Source of the DNA: an uncultured delta proteobacterium
Lineage (GTDB): Bacteria > Myxococcota_A > Polyangia > Polyangiales > Houyiibacteriaceae
Direction: 5' to 3'
Assembly (NCBI GenBank): GCA_963699755.1
Contig: CAVOVB010000001.1
Location: forward strand, 672,001-736,000
DNA length: 64,000 nt
This document shows, piece after piece, positions 30,001 through 36,000 of this stretch. Every line of letters starts with the position of its first letter. Within the stretch, counting starts at the first letter, position 1. Made by a program: the position numbers.

Positions 30001-33000
30001 TTCTGAGCGGCTCCTACGGCCTCTTTCTCTAGATCGCGCGCCGGTCTCTCGATTTCAGCATCATTTTCTGCATCTGCTTGAAGTCGGCAACGGCATCCTG
30101 CTCGTCGGTCGAAAACGGATAGTCGGCGCCGATCGAATGGGCAACGACCAGCCCGGACATGAAGGACAAGTCGTGTCCGCCCTCTGGAGTCGTGAACGTA
30201 CCGCAGTAGTAGAGCCCGTCCTTCCCCTGAAGGTGTCGCATCATCGACATGATGATGAGGTTCCCCAGCGAGACGCTGTGGGTGGGATGGGGCAGCTCGA
30301 TCCGTTTCTGAGCTCGCTCGATCGGCCGCTTCGCGTTGAAGGTGACCAGCATCGGCACACCCTGGTCCTTGGTGCTCGGGTTCTGGGCCGAGATGACGAA
30401 AGTGCACTCGAGCTCGCCCGCTTCATCGATTTGCGAATAGGTGTTGTACCCGGAGAGGATCTTGTCGCGATGTTCCCCGGGGAAGATGCTCGTGTCGGAG
30501 TGAACGATGAAGCTGGAGAACGTCGGATCGACGTCGTCTACGTACTCAGCCCTGCTGAAGAGGAGCCTCTGAAGCCAGCTGGGAGATTCGAGCGCGTCGA
30601 GCACCGAGGTCGCATCACAGGCGAAGACCACCTCATCGGCTTCGTAGCTCCGCCCTCTTGCATCAGCGAGGATGTACCGACCGTTTCTCCGTTTCACGCT
30701 CGTGATTTCGTGGTCGCAGTGCACCCGATCCGAAAATCGCGCCGTCATGCGGTCGAAAACCTGCCGGGGCGCGCCTTGCCAGGTTCCCATCTGCGTAGGC
30801 TCTTCGAGAGGTACGATGCTTTCGAGCAAGGGCAGGATCACCGCGGGAACCCCGCGCATCGAAGTCGTGATGAAGCTCGCGCAGTGGATCGGAACGAAGA
30901 TCGTGTCCCAGAAGTCGCGCGAGATCCCAAAGAGCCGGGCCATCCAGTAGAGCGGGATGAAGTTGAGCGGGTTGAAATACGAGAAGTGGTAGAGAGAGTC
31001 GTGTTTGTTTCTTGGCAGGAAGAAATCGTTCACCTTGCTGACGAAGGCGACGAGCCGCTTCCACCGGCGAAACTCGGGCGCGAATCGCTGCTGGAGCGCG
31101 GTTTGCCCGTCCTGGCAGAAGTGCCCCTCGGGGGTCTGCACGAAGTATGAGATGGGCAAGGTTTCGATTCCGACGCCTAGCTGCTGCAGGAGCAGCTCGT
31201 AGTTGTGGTAGTACATCTGCGGCCAGGCGACGACGAGGAGGGGCGAGTCCGCATGGCCTCGATCGGTGCGCCAGCGAAAGGTCTTCGCGTTGCCGCCGAG
31301 CGCAGGGCCCTTCTCGAAGATGTCTACCTCGTAGCCCGAGCGGCTGAGCGACCAGGCCGCGCCAACCCCGGCGATACCCCCTCCAACGACCGCTATCTGC
31401 TTGGTCATACGGCTCTCCCCAATCTCCTTCGCTACGCCCGCTTTGGTACCAAATCGACGATCGGCCCGTGGCGCAAAGTGTGACAGAGGCCTTTGTAGAT
31501 GCCGAGCGATTCGTAGACCGCCGCGGTCATCATCACCGTCCGGGTCTGCCCGATGATCGTGAATGGGAAGCCGCTGTGCAGAAAGGCAAACGAAAGCCGG
31601 TGCTCGGGGTTCGCCCAACCCCCAGCTCCACCTAACCCGAAATGTCCGAAGGCCGCCGGGACGTCCATCAGGAAAGCGTCGGTTCGGTGATAGCCGAGCT
31701 TCCAATGAAGGGGATAGATCGTGACCCTGTCGGCGCGCCTAGTTTGGACCTCGGACGCTTTTCGAACGACTTCTTCGGAGACCAGCCGGACGCCGTCGAG
31801 CTGGCCGCCCATCGAAAGCGGCGCGTACAACTTGGCGAGCGAACGCGCGGTCGCGACGCCGTTCATCGCAGGCAAGCAGGCCTTCCAAAACGCCGGATGC
31901 GAAAAGAGCTCCTTGGCATTTCGCGGAGTAATTCCGCGGCGACAGAGATCGCGCATCTGATTGGAGCGGACCCAGAAGGGCACGCGGTAGTCGATCCTGA
32001 GAGGCAGAGCGCCGTGCCGCTGGAGCTCAGGCAAGCCCACGAAGTCGGGTATGCGATCCATTTGGCTGTCCGCGTCGCCGATGTACAGCCCGTCGAGGTC
32101 GAGAGGTTTGACGATTCGTTGCTCGATGAACTCCGACACCGTGAGGCCAGAAATGCGGCGAATCAGCTCGCCCACGAGCCAACCAAAGGTGAGCGCCTGA
32201 TAGGCGTTGGCCGTGCCGGGGTGGAAGTCCGGCTCGATCTTGGCAAGGCGCGAGACGATGAGGTCCCAGTCGAGGATGTCGGTAAGCTGCTCCACGACAT
32301 GGACGACCTTGTGAAGGCCTGCCTGGTGCGAAAGGACTTGCCGGACGGTGATCTCCTGCTTGCCATTGCAGCCGAACTCTGGCCAATAGTCGGCGACCGG
32401 CGCCTCGTAGTCGATGAGACCTTCGGTCGCCAGCACGTGGATCGCGGTCGAGGTGATTCCTTTCGTGCCTGAGTAGCAGATCGACATCGTGTCTCGCTGC
32501 CAGCGCGCGCCGTCTTTCCGCGCAGACCCCGCCCAGATGTCGACTACGGGCTTGCCTTCGATGAACACCGCCGCCGAGGCACCTCCGCCGTACTGCTTGA
32601 TTTGCTTCCGCATCAGCTTCACGACCGGCTCGAATCGTGGCTCGTATGCGCCATATATCTCGATCTTCGTAGACATCAGCTCCGTCCTGGGTAGCGCACC
32701 GGGCTAGATCGGTCCAAAGAACGCCGCGGCGAAGTCCAATAGGAAGATCATGATCAGGCTCGCGGTGCACGCTGCGGCCGCCGTCATCGGCAGGCTCCAA
32801 TTCTTGTTACGCTCCTCGTCGATCCAGCAAAAGATCGGGAAGCTCGCTACGAAGTAGAGCGAATAGAAAAGGGAGCCGTACGTGAGCATTCGCTCCAGGT
32901 CCTTGTAGTAGAACTGGCTCTCCATCCAGGGGTTCGCCATGGCCTTGGTTTCCATCCAGGCCCAAAAATAGGCGATGCCGAGGACCAGGATCGGCCACGC

Positions 33001-36000
33001 CAGGGCGCCGCTCGGAATCCGGGAGGTGCGGATGCGCCTGAGGACGATGACCGCGGTCGTGTGATAGGTGAGAAAGTACGCCTGGGTGAGCAGATACATG
33101 ATCAACGGCACCCGTTGTTCTCCGGAGCCCACGAGCGCCGAATCGAGATTGAGCTCGATCATCGGGTAGTCGTAGACCATCCCGAGCACGTCGAAGAAGT
33201 ACTCGGTGCCGAAGTAGTTGGCCGCGAAGTTGAAGATCGCAATGTAGAGGTTCGCTTTGAACCAGTAGGTCTGGTACCAGCGTCGCCCGATGGGCTTCTC
33301 GTCGCGAATGAGGGCTGGGATCGCCGCCAGGGGCAGCGCGACGGCGACACCAATCGCCATGAAGCCCCACTCGCCCACACGATCGGTGACGCCGAGGCCC
33401 ATCACGAGCCCCATCATCGTCATCCAGACCGGCGAGTAGGCGAGGAAGAACCTCTCGCCCCAGGCCTTGCTGGGGTTTGCCGAGAACCAGCGCGGGACGA
33501 CAGCGCGCGTCATGCGGCCCGGCGGCGATATCGAATCCGAATGGGCGGCTTGGGCCCGAGGACCAGGCCCTGGAAGTCGGTTTCAATCGGATCGCCAGCG
33601 AGCTCGAAATCATAGCGATTGAGCAAGACCGCGATGATCGTTTTGATCTGCAAGATCGCGAAGGCGTTCCCCATGCACTTGTGTCGACCACCGCCAAAAG
33701 AGATGTACGCGAACGGGCGCTTGTCCTCTTCGCGTCCGGGGCCGTAGCGGTCCGGATCGTACTCGAGTGCGTTCTTGAACACTTCCTCGTCCCGATGCGC
33801 AATCATCGGCGAGACCGCCACCCAGTTCCCCTTCTTCACCCGATAACCCAAGATTTCGCAGTCCTCGAGCGCCGCTCGGAGAAGGATGAAGAGCGGCGGA
33901 TGGATGCGGAGGGCCTCTTTCACGGCGCCTTCGGTCTTCTCGAGGTCGCGAAGAGACTCGAAGCTGTATTGCTCGGCGTCCGCGTAGCGCGCGTGGATTT
34001 CGCGTTGCACTTCCTCGAGGAAGCGCGGGTGCCTCAGGAGCTCGACTAGGGTCCAGGCGGTCGTGACGGAGCTCGTGTGGTGCCCGGCAAACATGGCAGC
34101 GACGAGCATACCGGTGATCTCGTGGTCGCTGAGCTTGCTCCCATCCGAGTACTCCGCGTCCATCAGCGTCTGCAAGAAGTCTTCGCCCCGGTAGCCGGAC
34201 TGCTTTCGCTTCTCGACGATTTCGGAAACCATCTCCCCAAGCCGGGCGCGCGCCCTGTCCCGACGCCGAAAAGCAGGGAGCGGTAAGTACGGATGGATAT
34301 AGCCCCAGGCGACGATGCCTCGCTCGAGATCGTAGTAGACCTTCGAGAACTCCGCGCTCATCTCATTGCGGAACTCTTTGCCGAGCAGGCAGCTGCTCGA
34401 CGTGTAATTGGTGAGCATGCCGAAGAATTGGCTCGCCTCGATCTCGCCTTGCTCGCCCCAGTCGGCAAGAACGTCTAGGGTCTCTTTGGCCACGATTTCG
34501 GTGTAGGTGCGCATGCGATTGTTGCGCAGCGCCGGGTAGAGCATGTGCATCTGCTCTGCCATTTTCGCGGGCTCGGCTCCGTAGGCGACCCCCTCGCCAA
34601 AGACGGGAACCATCATCTTGTAGGCCGCGTTAGGACTGAGGACTTCGTCGGGCTGCCTGAACAGGGCCTCGTGCGCCGCCGGTCCGGTGAAGAGAATCAT
34701 GTCCTTGCCGAAGAGCTTGAATCGACCGACCCGCCCACACTCGTCGTAGGTCCGCTGGAGCAAGCCGATCGTGTCCTTCACGAAGGCCATGGTGTGACCG
34801 ACCAGCGGAAGCCCGCCCTTGAGCTTGGGAGGCCTCTTGAGCTTGCCGGCGGTCATGGTCGTAGTGGCGCTCTGTGCTCTTGCTGTCACCCTGGGCTCCT
34901 AGTCGGTCGCATGGTATCTGGGAACGGAAGGAGCTCCAATGCGAATCAAAGCGGATTTCGATCTTTGCAAGGGACACGCCAACTGCATGGGCGAAGCCCC
35001 CGAGGTCTTTGAGGTGGATGACAATGGCTACCTCAACATACTTCAGGAAGAGCCGCCCGAAGAGCTGCGCGAACAAGTCGAGCTCGCGGTCAAGCACTGT
35101 CCCACGGGCGCCCTCAGCCTCGAAGGCTGAGCTGTCATTCCCACGGCTTGATGTGCTCGGTCATCAACTGGTAGCTGCTGTGTTGGAGGTACGCGGCTGA
35201 GATGAACTCGGGATGGGAAAGGCTCGCCTGACTAGCGGGACCGACAAGGGCCTTCCCCAGGCGGAGGGCACTCAGCGACGGCCAACCAGTCCATGGTGAG
35301 AGCGACGCCCACATGAATCAGGACCCCTCCCCAGATGGAGCGGGTGCGCATTGCTAGCGTCCCGAGGGCAATCCCCGCAAGAATTGCGCCGAGGGTTTCG
35401 GGCAGTGGCTTTGGGTAGTGAATCATGCAGTAGGGCACGATCATCACGTAGATGGCGCCATAGCCGAACTTGTGCCGGAGCCCGTTGAGCATGTAGCCGC
35501 GAAAGAAAAACTCGAGGGCGAGGAATTGAACCGTATAGAGCAGCTGCCACGAGAGGAAGTGGGCGACCGACTGATTGGCGTACTTATAGAAGGGATAGGT
35601 GCGAAGAAATTGCTCTTGCTGCGCGACGAGCAGCACGAAAGGGAGCACGAGTAGATAGAGCCCAACGTAAATCCAAAGGTGGCGGCCGAAGCCGCGGAAA
35701 GAGATGTAGTAGTCGCGAATGCGCTCGCCTGGCATCAAGAGGATGGTCAGCCCTGGGATCAGCACGTAGGTCACAATTCGAACGCCCGACCACCAGGCCC
35801 TGGCCATCAAGTCCCATTCCGCGCGTGAATGAACCTTTGGGTCGTACGGAACGAGGTCGGAGAATGTCGCGTTGCCGCCGAAATACCGCGCGAGCGTTAG
35901 CACGACGGCGGTCGTGACGAGCACGACGATCGGTCGCCAATCGAGTCGCTCGGCACGGGCGGTGTCCGCCTCCGCGTCAGCCTGACGCCAAGAATCCAAG

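Follow-up and report, generated by a model that had tools for sequence, protein, structure and literature searches.

A conserved CYP51-CPI1 operon in a marine-sediment myxobacterium without an oxidosqualene cyclase, and its possible role in the tailoring of imported sterols

What use does a bacterium have for sterol-tailoring enzymes when its genome lacks the cyclase that forms the sterol rings? This question is raised by an operon in the 64,000-nucleotide stretch of DNA analysed here (the window), which belongs to a Polyangiales metagenome-assembled genome (MAG), G000; the source organism is a marine-sediment myxobacterium. An earlier note had described the locus as a plant-type CPI1-CYP51 module in a genome without any squalene-hopene or oxidosqualene cyclase.

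The operon and the adjoining ferredoxin gene

The operon at 30029..34889 and the gene next to it comprise (window coordinates):

33510..34889, minus strand: CYP51 (sterol 14alpha-demethylase family), 459 aa, GTG start, second Met 11 codons in
32704..33513, minus strand: homologue of the cycloeucalenol cycloisomerase CPI1, 269 aa, polytopic membrane protein
31432..32676, minus strand: carboxylesterase of family VIII with a beta-lactamase fold, 414 aa, separated from the upstream CPI1 gene by 27 nt
30029..31705, minus strand: flavin amine-oxidase/CrtI-like oxidoreductase, longest ORF 558 aa
34939..35130, plus strand: 63-aa ferredoxin with a single cluster of the 3Fe/4Fe-4S type, transcribed divergently from CYP51

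The coordinates agree with the earlier note's description of a same-strand overlap of 4 nt between CYP51 and the CPI1 homologue and of a divergent ferredoxin gene; read from the sequence, the nucleotides shared by the CYP51 stop and the CPI1 start are ATGA. In a PDB search with the P450 (Pfam p450, 235 bits), all of the ~55 top matches were CYP51 (7jj1 and 6mcw, E 2e-140; 1e9x, E 6e-112). The score against solved CYP51 structures was 471 bits with conserved motifs, and the translation contains the heme-thiolate motif FGGGRHKCMG. Profile searches of Pfam and NCBIfam returned no family for the CPI1 homologue. Its close relatives carry the JGI name 'cycloeucalenol cycloisomerase', it matches a Streptophyta cluster of that enzyme in the protein atlas (0.91), and it has at least four strongly hydrophobic segments of 19 residues.

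The carboxylesterase (Pfam Beta-lactamase, 196 bits; NCBIfam LipL-like, 288 bits, under the cut-off) matches carboxylesterases in the PDB (5gmx, E 6e-62) and adjoins CPI1 in 31 of the 50 genomes whose CPI1 locus was examined; we consider it a candidate steryl-ester hydrolase. The oxidoreductase matches Pfam NAD_binding_8 and Amino_oxidase as well as the amine oxidase LkcE in the PDB (E 1e-18). Since its Rossmann motif begins at residue 103 of the ORF, the real start is probably near 31420, just past the esterase stop, and in relatives with a long enough flank the gene likewise comes after the esterase. The ferredoxin (Pfam Fer4_15, 47 bits; also Fer4_13 and Fer4_19) occupies the same position in near relatives whose locus extends that far and is probably the redox partner of CYP51.

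Prior reports of bacterial CPI1

Lanosterol has no cyclopropane ring. This matters for the reaction to be expected of the CPI1 homologue, and the literature bears on it. Myxobacterial CPI1 was reported in 2009, with a Plesiocystis homologue accompanying a lanosterol-type cyclase residue (PMC2817430), and CPI1 was handled as myxobacterial among eight largely syntenic stage-2 genes (PMC8237579). A preprint reports lanosterol production by cultured Nannocystaceae (10.1101/2024.11.01.621555). Neither the label 'plant-type' nor the earlier statement that no paper on bacterial CPI1 was found can therefore be kept. Our literature search found no characterised bacterial CPI1. Because CPI1 homologues occur in lineages with reported lanosterol production, cyclopropyl-isomerase activity is itself presumptive. 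The homologue may catalyse something other than cyclopropane opening, and the substrate assignment is weaker than the earlier note took it to be.

Absence of the cyclase from G000

The earlier claim that G000 has no oxidosqualene or squalene-hopene cyclase was borne out. Profile searches of G000 gave no more than 28 bits for SQHop_cyclase_C (within a 372-aa protein), 21 bits for SQHop_cyclase_N (inside a Ser/Thr kinase) and a 23.5-bit partial match for squalene epoxidase. Using the oxidosqualene cyclase (OSC), epoxidase and HMG-CoA synthase of one congener as tblastn queries, nothing was obtained in the 5.35 Mb of G000 at E 1e-5. In congeners, the cyclase gene lies in a 12-14 kb cassette with a private mevalonate pathway, squalene synthase, epoxidase and sometimes a second CYP51. 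In G035 the cassette reads as follows:

L042:1924-16325: LytTR regulator, IDI2, HMGS, epoxidase, SQS, HMGR, OSC, FPPS, MK, MDD, PMK, second CYP51

The flanks of this cassette are 844 bp apart on contig C8 of G000. Synteny thus upholds the true absence claimed before: given this empty site, and as the whole assembly holds none of the cassette genes, the lack of the cyclase is real and no assembly gap. G000 consists of 11 contigs with 100% marker completeness and 9% contamination, and rpoB is present twice. Over 309 kb, C1 shows ~82% identity to contig C7 (436 kb), which therefore derives from a second congener in the bin; the other contigs are non-redundant.

Distribution of the cassette

The cassette site is filled in G035, G025 and G032 and contiguous (empty) in G013, G043, G003, G040 and G034, and the cassette has other genomic contexts in G012, G038, G020 and G034. 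In G034 the ancestral site is empty and a divergent OSC lies elsewhere (G034-G035 dS 1.28 for OSC versus 0.40-0.55 for CPI1 and CYP51). The congener OSC is normal, with the catalytic Asp-Cys pair. We found neither an integrase nor clear flanking repeats at the cassette.

Strong cyclase matches are scattered over the rpoB tree. For 40 genomes this tree requires 10-11 changes of cassette state, no fewer than with shuffled labels (mean 12.8); the species tree, built on rpoB only, conflicts with the module, which makes any count of independent losses rough. Single-gene trees are discordant, and G000 and G034 share 99% identity in rpoB but 82% in the module region. OSC distances track rpoB only moderately (Spearman 0.43), so the cassette is exchanged among lineages and may be regained. 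We conclude that it was lost (or exchanged) many times within the genus.

Retention of the tailoring genes and selection

We reproduced the earlier counts for the genus, in a set of 54 congeners that holds many fragmented MAGs: a strong cyclase was found in 20, and the CPI1 homologue in 51, none with internal stops, including 32 of the 34 cyclase-less genomes. One of these 34, G015, probably carries the cassette, because a cassette-type epoxidase and squalene synthase lie at a contig end. CYP51 was present in 53/54 congeners and ERG4/24 in 51/54. In the 13 congeners with ≤50 contigs and ≥90% completeness, the cyclase was detected in four, and CPI1 and CYP51 each in all 13. The cyclase is also missing from the few-contig congeners G037, G041 and G044 (4, 5 and 6 contigs). 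The order CYP51-CPI1-esterase-oxidoreductase is conserved in genomes with and without the cassette alike. In a class-wide sample of 301 genomes, each at least 90% complete, 57 of the 58 CPI1 carriers outside the genus had a cyclase versus 7 of 19 inside it. The uncoupling of CPI1 from the cyclase is particular to this genus.

Purifying selection acts on the tailoring genes in lineages without the cyclase. By the NG86 method, with hand-picked, non-independent pairs of which several have saturated dS, dN/dS of CPI1 was 0.06-0.17 in 15 cassette-less pairs and 0.07-0.17 in 10 cassette pairs; for CYP51 it was 0.045-0.13 (13 cassette-less pairs) and 0.02-0.155 (seven cassette pairs). In two clades made up of cassette-less genomes only (G042/G029/G001/G016 and G041/G007/G028/G039), dS was ~1 or >1 and dN/dS ~0.1 for both genes.

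Further steroid-related genes

Several of the additional sterol enzymes listed in the earlier note were confirmed, at family level only: G000 has two ERG4_ERG24 genes, two Steroid_dh genes, two EBP genes plus one on C7, and seven FA_hydroxylase genes, one of which adjoins a Rieske/KshA_C protein. We also found a steroid-catabolism-like set:

C2:238-285 kb: FadD3-family and CasG-like ligases, CoA-transferase, Rv3520c-family F420 oxidoreductase
further genes: paired acyl-CoA dehydrogenases, lipid-transfer thiolases, ChsH2-type OB-fold protein, SCP2 protein, hydratase, aldolase, acetaldehyde dehydrogenase

A Rieske oxygenase of the KshA type (177 bits to Pfam KshA_C) and HsaA-like (410 bits; NCBIfam cut-off 450) and KstD-like (590 bits; cut-off 788) proteins are encoded as well. 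HsaA-like genes occur in 51/54 congeners and, in the class sample, in 20/20 genus members versus 14/280 others (the 14 including the unpublished genome G283); among CPI1 carriers outside the genus they occur in 2/58. Judged from its gene content, the genus appears to encode steroid degradation of the 9,10-seco type, an observation that is new here. The matches to HsaA, HsaC, HsaD and KstD all lie below the NCBIfam equivalog cut-offs, which counts against this assignment.

Discussion

Could the cyclase have been missed, in an unassembled or unbinned part or because C8, the contig with the empty site, came from the second organism of the bin? The contamination of this 11-contig MAG, the foreign origin of C7, the lack of a link placing C1 and C8 in one cell, and the contig breaks in G015 and G017, which show how a cassette can be hidden, all leave room for this. 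We nevertheless consider it improbable: contigs other than C7 are non-redundant, markers are complete, OSC, epoxidase and HMGS are nowhere in the assembly, and the cassette, single-copy and of ordinary sequence, poses no assembly problem in relatives. The empty site is contiguous in five other genomes as well, and the cassette is absent from the 4-, 5- and 6-contig congeners. A non-homologous or very divergent cyclase that completes the pathway would be beyond the reach of homology searches, and many G000 proteins have no family; it is nonetheless highly improbable, as epoxidase and cassette-type squalene synthase, and with them the substrate of a cyclase, are missing too, and congeners have an ordinary OSC. 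The idea that the tailoring genes are remnants, decaying since the cassette was recently lost, has in its favour that cassette carriers are among the nearest relatives of G000. This reading is largely refuted by 51 of 51 CPI1 matches free of internal stops, the dN/dS of ~0.1 for cassette-less pairs, whose dS reaches >1, and the conserved operon structure, and we give it hardly any credence.

The tailoring genes might matter only together with the cassette, its frequent loss and regain, through recombination between relatives or because it varies among strains within populations, maintaining selection, so that cassette-less genomes would be transient and make no use of sterols. The number of state changes, the varied cassette contexts, the divergent OSC of G034 and the discordant gene trees fit this explanation, but against it stand the cassette-less clades with dS of ~1 or more and dN/dS of ~0.1 and the negative search for an integrase or clear repeats at the cassette, and it leaves unexplained an uncoupling limited to a genus with steroid-catabolism-like genes; we think it unlikely. 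We also doubt that, in this genus, the substrate of the CYP51 and CPI1 homologues is an endogenous non-sterol lipid or something else, with their retention unrelated to sterols. CYP51 does occur in bacteria that make no sterols, such as Mycobacterium tuberculosis, our literature search yielded no bacterial CPI1 substrate, and the esterase and amine-oxidase-like flavoprotein are non-canonical as sterol enzymes. However, CPI1 outside the genus is nearly always accompanied by a cyclase, the P450 closely resembles solved CYP51s, the genus retains ERG4/24, EBP, Steroid_dh and FA_hydroxylase, and there is neither a cassette-type squalene synthase nor another triterpene cyclase to provide a substrate.

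As the cassette is missing while the tailoring genes are kept, the operon most likely acts on external sterol intermediates. On balance we lean towards a conserved myxobacterial sterol-tailoring operon that, in cassette-less members, works on imported intermediates for membranes, catabolism or both. Such intermediates would be taken up from cassette-bearing relatives or from algal or plant detritus in the sediment. The carboxylesterase would hydrolyse esters of the imported sterol, the CPI1 homologue would open a 9,19-cyclopropane ring or perform a related isomerisation, and CYP51, translationally coupled to this membrane isomerase and probably receiving electrons from the divergent ferredoxin, would then carry out 14-demethylation. 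From the products, the retained reductases, isomerases and desaturases could make membrane sterols, or the products could be channelled into 9,10-seco-type degradation. The earlier proposal that the organism takes up and remodels or degrades sterols thus gains indirect support from the catabolism-like genes; uptake, remodelling and degradation are all steps that we infer. Some points count against this reading. CPI1 and CYP51 are unnecessary for finished eukaryotic sterols, so the imported substrates would need to be protosterol-stage compounds. In addition, no sterol transporter was identified, and the adjoining TRAP binding protein matches ordinary DctP proteins only.

The window holds two further candidate steroid loci:

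22451-23134, minus strand: TetR regulator (Pfam, ORF)
21291-22454, minus strand: FAD/NAD/2Fe-2S reductase (NCBIfam best PaaE-like, 230 bits, below cut-off)
20596-21282, minus strand: FA_hydroxylase-family membrane oxygenase (Pfam, ORF)
19573-20592, minus strand: 3beta-HSD-family dehydrogenase (NCBIfam best OleD-like, 250 bits; SdmB, 81 bits; below cut-off)
28351-29346, minus strand: BphC/HsaC-like extradiol dioxygenase (Pfam; NCBIfam BphC 298 bits, cut-off 366; HsaC 222, cut-off 450)
27450-28286, minus strand: BphD/HsaD-like alpha/beta hydrolase (Pfam; NCBIfam HsaD 187 bits, cut-off 400; BphD 170, cut-off 462)

The genes at 19573..23134 form a second candidate steroid operon, which may serve sterol C-4 demethylation or catabolism. 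The meta-cleavage pair at 27450..29346, beside the CYP51-CPI1 operon, could be tied to steroid ring cleavage, against which it counts that BphC scores higher than the Hsa models. Pair and operon remain colinear in G036, G043, G025, G035 and G034.

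The CYP51-CPI1 operon

The genome under study is assembled in 11 contigs (5.35 Mb), and its contig C1 carries four consecutive minus-strand genes for a P450, a membrane protein, an esterase and a flavin oxidoreductase, with a ferredoxin gene beside them.

Genes of the operon and the adjoining ferredoxin gene (window coordinates, strand, product, basis of assignment)
33510-34889, minus: CYP51 P450, 459 aa (PDB matches)
32704-33513, minus: CPI1 homologue, membrane protein, 269 aa (JGI names, protein atlas)
31432-32676, minus: beta-lactamase-fold esterase, 414 aa (family VIII carboxylesterases)
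30029 to about 31420 (longest ORF to 31705), minus: flavin oxidoreductase (LkcE-like)
34939-35130, plus, divergent from CYP51: single-cluster ferredoxin, 63 aa (ORF and family)

The earlier note had described CPI1 and CYP51 genes that overlap by 4 nt on the same strand next to a divergent ferredoxin gene, and this was borne out: an ATGA common to the CYP51 stop and the CPI1 start was read directly. Close relatives of the window's proteins carry the labels of Polyangiales or Myxococcota MAGs. A promoter and terminator scan of 29000-35400 gave sites no more numerous than in shuffled sequences. A 235-aa ORF at 29325-30032 (plus strand, no family, very high third-position GC of 0.85) is convergent with the last gene of the operon, with a 4-nt overlap, and divergent from a dioxygenase gene.

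The P450 is, judged by its matches, a CYP51 of the sterol 14alpha-demethylase family. Its ~55 best PDB matches are all CYP51 (7jj1, 471 bits; 7jj1/6mcw, 2e-140; 1e9x, 378 bits, 6e-112), the first non-CYP51 P450 families score at most 183 bits, and the nearest solved structure is that of Methylococcus CYP51. The motifs FGGGRHKCMG, FAGHHTSS and AYKMMVPVFGEGVAYG align with the same motifs of 7jj1; they correspond to the heme-thiolate loop and the helix-I / B'-helix signatures of CYP51.

The 269-aa protein matched no Pfam or NCBIfam family. Its relatives at 72-84% identity bear the JGI name cycloeucalenol cycloisomerase, it matches the Streptophyta cluster 'Cycloeucalenol cycloisomerase' of the protein atlas at 0.91, and at least four hydrophobic segments (Kyte-Doolittle mean ≥1.5 over 19 residues) mark it as a small polytopic membrane protein. 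Myxobacterial proteins are placed in the CPI1 family in the accessible text of PMC2817430 and PMC8237579. We assign the protein to this family, with opening of the 9beta,19-cyclopropane ring as its predicted reaction. The esterase resembles family VIII carboxylesterases (PDB 5gmx, 6e-62) and the flavin oxidoreductase the amine oxidase LkcE (PDB, 1e-18). NCBIfam matches of the latter, HpnE among them, were uninformative because they span only the Rossmann motif, and HpnE was rejected as its identity.

In plants, CPI1 acts before CYP51 (cycloeucalenol to obtusifoliol to the 14-demethylated diene). Both consecutive enzymes have overlapping genes here, which by analogy suggests consecutive action. 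In contrast to the plant route, the gene order is CYP51 then CPI1, and the genome holds no cycloartenol synthase.

Absence of the cyclase cassette

In a six-frame HMM search of the genome, SQHop_cyclase_C reached only 28 bits, in a 372-aa protein, SQHop_cyclase_N only 21 bits, within a Ser/Thr kinase, and squalene epoxidase only a 23.5-bit partial match. Some congeners carry a cyclase cassette. In the congener G035 it is 14.4 kb long, in the order LytTR response regulator, type-2 IDI, HMG-CoA synthase (HMGS), squalene epoxidase, squalene synthase, HMG-CoA reductase, oxidosqualene cyclase (OSC), FPP synthase, mevalonate kinase, diphosphomevalonate decarboxylase, phosphomevalonate kinase and a second CYP51. 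A tblastn search of the genome with twelve proteins of this cassette found no OSC, epoxidase or HMGS at E 1e-5 and recovered only housekeeping mevalonate genes (46-66% identity) and the CYP51 of the operon.

The flanks of the G035 cassette align to contig C8 of the genome under study at 77% and 74% identity and lie 844 bp apart there, compared with 14.4 kb in G035. In this 844-bp gap a marginal HMGS-like match (33% over 79 aa, E 0.005, wrong orientation) was taken as chance and not as a cassette remnant. We searched for the same flanks in ten further genomes. The site is occupied in G025 and G032, where a single contig holds flank, cassette CYP51 and OSC; G013, G043, G003, G040 and G034 have contiguous flanks; and the contig breaks at the site in G053 and G017. 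G036 has 4.1 kb of unrelated DNA there, which encodes a histidine kinase and no cassette protein and so was rejected as a remnant. The cassette showed no convincing flanking repeats or att-like sites, and there is no integrase among its genes. It lies in other contexts in G012, G038, G020 and G034, and some versions are without the kinases or the CYP51 copy. In G034 (regions C9:277500-297400, L041, and C22:134147-139666) the ancestral site is empty, and a divergent cassette stands at another locus whose flanks map to several contigs of the genome under study; its OSC is 71% identical to that of G035 (dS 1.28). This looks like re-acquisition or relocation.

We conclude that the cyclase cassette is truly absent from this genome. 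The negative HMM and tblastn searches and the empty site on C8 uphold the claim of the earlier note that there is no cyclase, and OSC and squalene epoxidase, both required for de novo sterol synthesis, are missing.

One contig is foreign. The assembly has two full-length rpoB genes (C1:1666061-1670128 and C7:331582-335649; 90% nucleotide and 97.5% amino acid identity), and contig C7 (436 kb) matches C1 at ~82% over ~309 kb. C7 therefore comes from another species of the genus, present in the same sample and placed in this bin, which explains the 9% contamination of the MAG; the other contigs are non-redundant. C7 carries the only SQS_PSY gene of the assembly (232 bits; of a type present in most congeners) and one of its three EBP genes.

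Distribution across the genus and the class

Among 54 other species genomes of the genus, a strong cyclase was found in 20 and squalene epoxidase in 18, CPI1 in 51 (none with internal stops), CYP51 in 53 and the ERG4/ERG24 family in 51. Cassette carriers number at least 21, since G015 has cassette-type genes at a contig end. Thirteen congeners have ≤50 contigs and ≥90% completeness; all 13 hold CPI1 and CYP51, and four hold a cyclase. G021 (99% complete, 90 contigs) is the converse case, with the cassette and without CPI1 and CYP51 homologues.

In most genomes no more than about 1.1 kb separates CPI1 from CYP51, and the spacer length is stepped (-4, ~70, 215, 620 and 1090 bp); G010 has 8 kb between the two genes, and in G018, G019, G022 and G041 they are unlinked. 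The esterase gene follows CPI1 in 31 of the 50 genomes with the locus examined, and elsewhere the stretch is too short or another gene lies between. In the near clade each cassette carrier holds two CYP51 genes, and the cassette CYP51 nests within one of the two deep CYP51 lineages of the genus. These two lineages, ≥86% or 63-71% identical to the CYP51 of the genome under study, form a mosaic over the rpoB tree.

In a class sample of 301 genomes, each ≥90% complete and with related genomes as non-independent observations, CPI1 homologues occur in 78. Outside the genus, 57 of 58 CPI1 carriers also have a cyclase (the exception being G274), compared with only 7 of 19 inside the genus sample. The uncoupling of CPI1 from the cyclase is thus peculiar to this genus.

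History and selection

We built a nucleotide rpoB tree of 42 rows (40 congeners and both copies of the genome under study; 14 genomes without usable rpoB omitted). The cassette state requires 10-11 changes on this tree, no fewer than with shuffled labels (mean 12.8). An OSC tree of 20 sequences gives the same main groups except for G034, and Spearman correlations with rpoB distances were 0.43 for OSC (16 genomes), 0.64 for CPI1 and 0.51 for CYP51. We read the cassette as old, with many losses and some exchange; the evidence for this history is limited because single-gene trees disagree, and rpoB was used as a species tree with caution, given the discordance. For instance, rpoB on C1 is 99% identical to that of G034 (C14:324836-328903), whereas identity falls to ~82% over the 19-kb region of the operon, and 18% of CPI1 nucleotides differ, which points to recombination or to mis-binning of a contig in either MAG.

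We also estimated dN/dS (pairwise Nei-Gojobori) for pairs that were chosen from the tree and are non-independent, with ratios that are approximate owing to high dS. For CPI1 the values were 0.064-0.167 in cassette-less pairs (median 0.10; 15 pairs) and 0.067-0.169 in cassette pairs (median 0.10; 10 pairs). Those for CYP51 were 0.045-0.128 (13 cassette-less pairs; one more saturated) and 0.019-0.155 (7 cassette pairs), and those for OSC 0.09-0.20 (10 cassette pairs). Moreover, dS exceeds 1 within clades made up solely of cassette-less genomes. The low ratios together with these deep cassette-less clades indicate that the tailoring genes are maintained without the cyclase. Our results demonstrate a patchy distribution of the cassette and a near-universal, selected retention of the tailoring genes.

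Congener cyclases and published sterol systems

The congener OSC has the catalytic Asp-Cys. In G035 (L042:8960-10966) it shows Ala and a one-residue gap at human T381, His at 449 and Val at 453. We take His 449 to be as in cycloartenol synthases and Val 453 as in lanosterol synthases. With this unusual combination the product may be cycloartenol, lanosterol, parkeol or a mixture, and the CPI1 homologue may catalyse a reaction other than cyclopropane opening. A cycloartenol-forming cyclase alongside CPI1 was not found: the genome under study has no cyclase, and the congener OSC reads A/H/V at 381/449/453. The meanings of the diagnostic residues come partly from the accessible text of PMC2817430, in which Desmond and Gribaldo also state that no known CPI1 holder makes lanosterol.

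The earlier note had found no paper on bacterial CPI1, which needs correction: among the sources on myxobacterial sterols (PMC2817430, PMC8237579, PMC10202945 and the preprint 10.1101/2024.11.01.621555), Desmond and Gribaldo published a homologue in Plesiocystis pacifica in 2009 and, in the sections available, describe a Plesiocystis cyclase with a lanosterol-type residue and call for characterisation of the CPI1 protein (PMC2817430). Hoshino and Gaucher (2021) list CPI1 as one of eight mostly syntenic myxobacterial stage-2 genes, and their analysis covers only species with at least a protosterol pathway (PMC8237579). According to the portions at hand of the 2024 preprint, Myxococcota MAGs hold 121 Osc and 145 Cyp51 sequences, Cyp51 in MAG groups without other sterol genes is read as hidden sterol synthesis, and cultured Nannocystaceae make lanosterol; those portions describe no cassette polymorphism or empty sites (10.1101/2024.11.01.621555). 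A term search of the retrievable text on Enhygromyxa salina (Lee et al. 2023; PMC10202945) gave no mention of CPI or isomerase.

Our genomes share with these systems the phylum, CYP51, CPI1, ERG24-type reductases and C-4 demethylation candidates, partly syntenic, and cassette-bearing congeners resemble ordinary members of the myxobacterial sterol gene set. The published studies start from cyclase holders, whereas here the cassette is missing in most of the genus and the tailoring genes are kept. A full-text search, with subscription journals and supplements outside its scope, turned up no report of Myxococcota that keep tailoring genes without a cyclase; such genomes may stand in the supplementary tables of PMC8237579 and the 2024 preprint.

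A steroid-catabolism-like gene set

Downstream of the operon lie a meta-cleavage pair and then genes for a GMC oxidoreductase, an aldehyde dehydrogenase and a TRAP binding protein, followed by a second operon (TetR, FAD-2Fe2S reductase, FA_hydroxylase, 3beta-HSD-family). This 13-kb arrangement is colinear in G036, G043, G025, G035 and G034. A further ~47 kb of contig C2, around an HsaA-like gene, clusters catabolism-type genes.

Steroid-catabolism-like genes (scores as bits/NCBIfam cut-off)
Just downstream of the operon: putative extradiol dioxygenase, BphC 298/366 and HsaC 222/450, all below cut-off
Just downstream of the operon: putative meta-cleavage hydrolase, HsaD/BphD best families, HsaD 187/400, below cut-off
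C2:238000-285000 (L147-L149): cluster around the HsaA-like gene (410/450)
C2 cluster: hydratase; aldolase (547/286) and acetaldehyde dehydrogenase (450/282), both over cut-off
C2 cluster: four pairs of acyl-CoA dehydrogenase subunits; thiolases and lipid-transfer proteins, over cut-off
C2 cluster: ChsH2-type OB-fold protein and SCP2 protein; CoA-transferase; nitronate-monooxygenase-type reductase
C2 cluster: FadD3-family ligase (partial); CasG-like ligase (663/750), below cut-off
C2 cluster: Rv3520c-family F420 oxidoreductase (368/335), over cut-off
C2:250463-251905: KshA-type oxygenase, Rieske + KshA_C (177 bits), domain level only
Near C1:1386.8-1387.9 kb: second Rieske/KshA_C protein (105 bits), domain level only
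C2:505151-506767, apart from the cluster: KstD-like flavoprotein (590/788)

KstD, HsaA and HsaD are the best family matches of their proteins and yet fall below the NCBIfam cut-offs, and the dioxygenase scores higher as BphC than as HsaC. F420 biosynthesis genes (cofC/D/E/H, npdG) adjoin the C2 cluster. Of 54 congeners, 51 carry HsaA-like genes; in the class sample all 20 genus members have them, compared with 14 of 280 others (one being the unpublished G283) and 2 of the 58 CPI1 carriers outside the genus. Thus the one genus that can do without the cyclase is also the one in which sterol-tailoring genes meet a 9,10-seco-like catabolic set of putative steroid specificity.

Mycobacterium tuberculosis presumably offers a parallel, as a sterol degrader that makes no sterols and has CYP51 with an adjacent ferredoxin gene. 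Like it, the genome under study has a soluble-type CYP51 and a small ferredoxin, no cyclase, and steroid-catabolism-type genes; unlike it, the host is a myxobacterium, whose CYP51 gene is coupled to a CPI1 homologue and accompanied by many tailoring genes of eukaryotic type. With the 9,10-seco pathway the genome shares homologues of KshA, KstD, HsaA, HsaC/D and HsaEFG and clustered side-chain and ring C/D beta-oxidation-type genes; it differs from established degraders in that most of its candidate key enzymes score below equivalog cut-offs. Holert et al. (2018) restrict the pathway to Actinobacteria and Proteobacteria, and term counts over the available text gave no mention of Deltaproteobacteria or Myxococc- (PMC5790920). 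A full-text search (subscription journals and supplements outside) found no paper on steroid degradation by Myxococcota.

Genes of the Sulfotransfer_1 (eukaryote-like cytosolic type, 156 bits) and Sulfotransfer_3 families lie at 5478-6392 and 19059-19565, near the steroid-type genes, and sterol sulfation by their products is conceivable. EBP/EXPERA genes lie at C1:1905200-1907000 (L136) and C2:696600-698000 (L134); one directly follows a WS/DGAT acyltransferase gene, which makes steryl-ester formation possible, and the other adjoins a short-chain dehydrogenase gene. The TRAP solute-binding protein (26434-27453) was rejected as a sterol binder, having ordinary DctP/SiaP matches only; the term Myxococc- does not occur in the retrieved text of a paper on bacterial sterol-binding domains (PMC10942540). 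The window also encodes a 692-aa protein with a linalool dehydratase/isomerase (Ldi) domain (16301-18379; 127 bits) and has three gene pairs (12678-16294, 41378-44481 and 47618-50721), each made up of a DUF1592/DUF1588/DUF1595 (PSD-type) gene and, after it, a DUF1552 (HXXSHH) gene.

Possible roles of the tailoring genes

On balance we lean towards the reading that in cassette-less members the enzymes act on imported sterol intermediates, which would yield membrane sterols and/or feed degradation. A cyclase that is present and was missed is very improbable: the assembly is a MAG with one foreign contig, and the whole of it is without the cassette, whether or not C1 (operon) and C8 (empty site) share one cell. 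Frequent regain of the cassette could let the tailoring genes bridge short cyclase-less periods, and the many changes of state on the rpoB tree and the second locus in G034 are consistent with it; given that dS exceeds 1 within purely cassette-less clades, we consider it improbable. Hardly more probable is a non-sterol substrate for the CYP51 and CPI1 homologues. Our literature search found no characterised bacterial CPI1, which leaves room for one; the exclusively CYP51-type PDB matches and the company of a cyclase in nearly all CPI1 carriers outside the genus argue for sterols.

Use of imported intermediates would resemble sterol auxotrophs and cross-feeders, which have lost early steps and use the sterols or intermediates of others: in the text available, Phytophthora is described as using exogenous sterols (PMC9927452), and for Bathymodiolus mussels it is proposed that methanotrophic symbionts supply a sterol intermediate (PMC5421315). 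Those, however, are eukaryotes, whereas the genome under study keeps the very early steps CPI1 and CYP51, which would be superfluous for finished dietary sterols.

As a tentative and rather doubtful extension of the import reading, biosynthetic enzymes may have been re-used as a catabolic funnel that 'unlocks' protosterols. CPI1 would open the 9,19-cyclopropane ring, CYP51 would take off the 14-methyl group, and the products of the nearby FA_hydroxylase and 3beta-HSD genes would remove 4-methyl groups from protosterol-type compounds. Detritus of algae or plants, or sterol producers nearby, might supply the substrates (cycloartenol, lanosterol and 4-methyl derivatives of both), and the unlocked nucleus would pass to ring opening by KshA, KstD and Hsa enzymes or, alternatively, to a finished membrane sterol. 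If true, such a funnel would make the cassette dispensable and account for its having been lost repeatedly in precisely the only genus of the class where the two gene sets meet. It would also assign CYP51 a physiological function in bacteria that degrade but do not produce sterols, and would stand as the first report of 9,10-seco-type steroid degradation from Myxococcota.

Sterol synthesis by Myxococcota is central to debates on the origin of eukaryotic sterol synthesis and the reading of sterane biomarkers, in which CYP51 or CPI1 in a MAG is usually taken as sterol production. This genus shows the two uncoupled, with an optional ring-forming cassette and nearly universal tailoring genes under selection, and gene-presence surveys of sediment 'sterol producers' should demand a cyclase. 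Use of imported intermediates would make the genus an example of sterol cross-feeding or auxotrophy among bacteria; if the tailoring enzymes feed degradation, the known range of steroid degraders would widen to Myxococcota, with a testable answer on the role of CYP51 in bacteria that degrade sterols without making them.

Occurrence in environmental datasets

In the estuary metatranscriptome run X13 we found contigs of 206-321 nt with 90-99% identity to the CPI1, CYP51, oxidoreductase, FA_hydroxylase and reductase genes. We rejected them as evidence of operon transcription, because the assembled contigs are spread over 23 of 30 bins and DNA was possibly present. In the marine sediment and sediment metagenome runs X1-X6, one of which may be the sample of origin, 31-65% of sampled words were present, and X1 and X3 contained many contigs at ≥99% identity.
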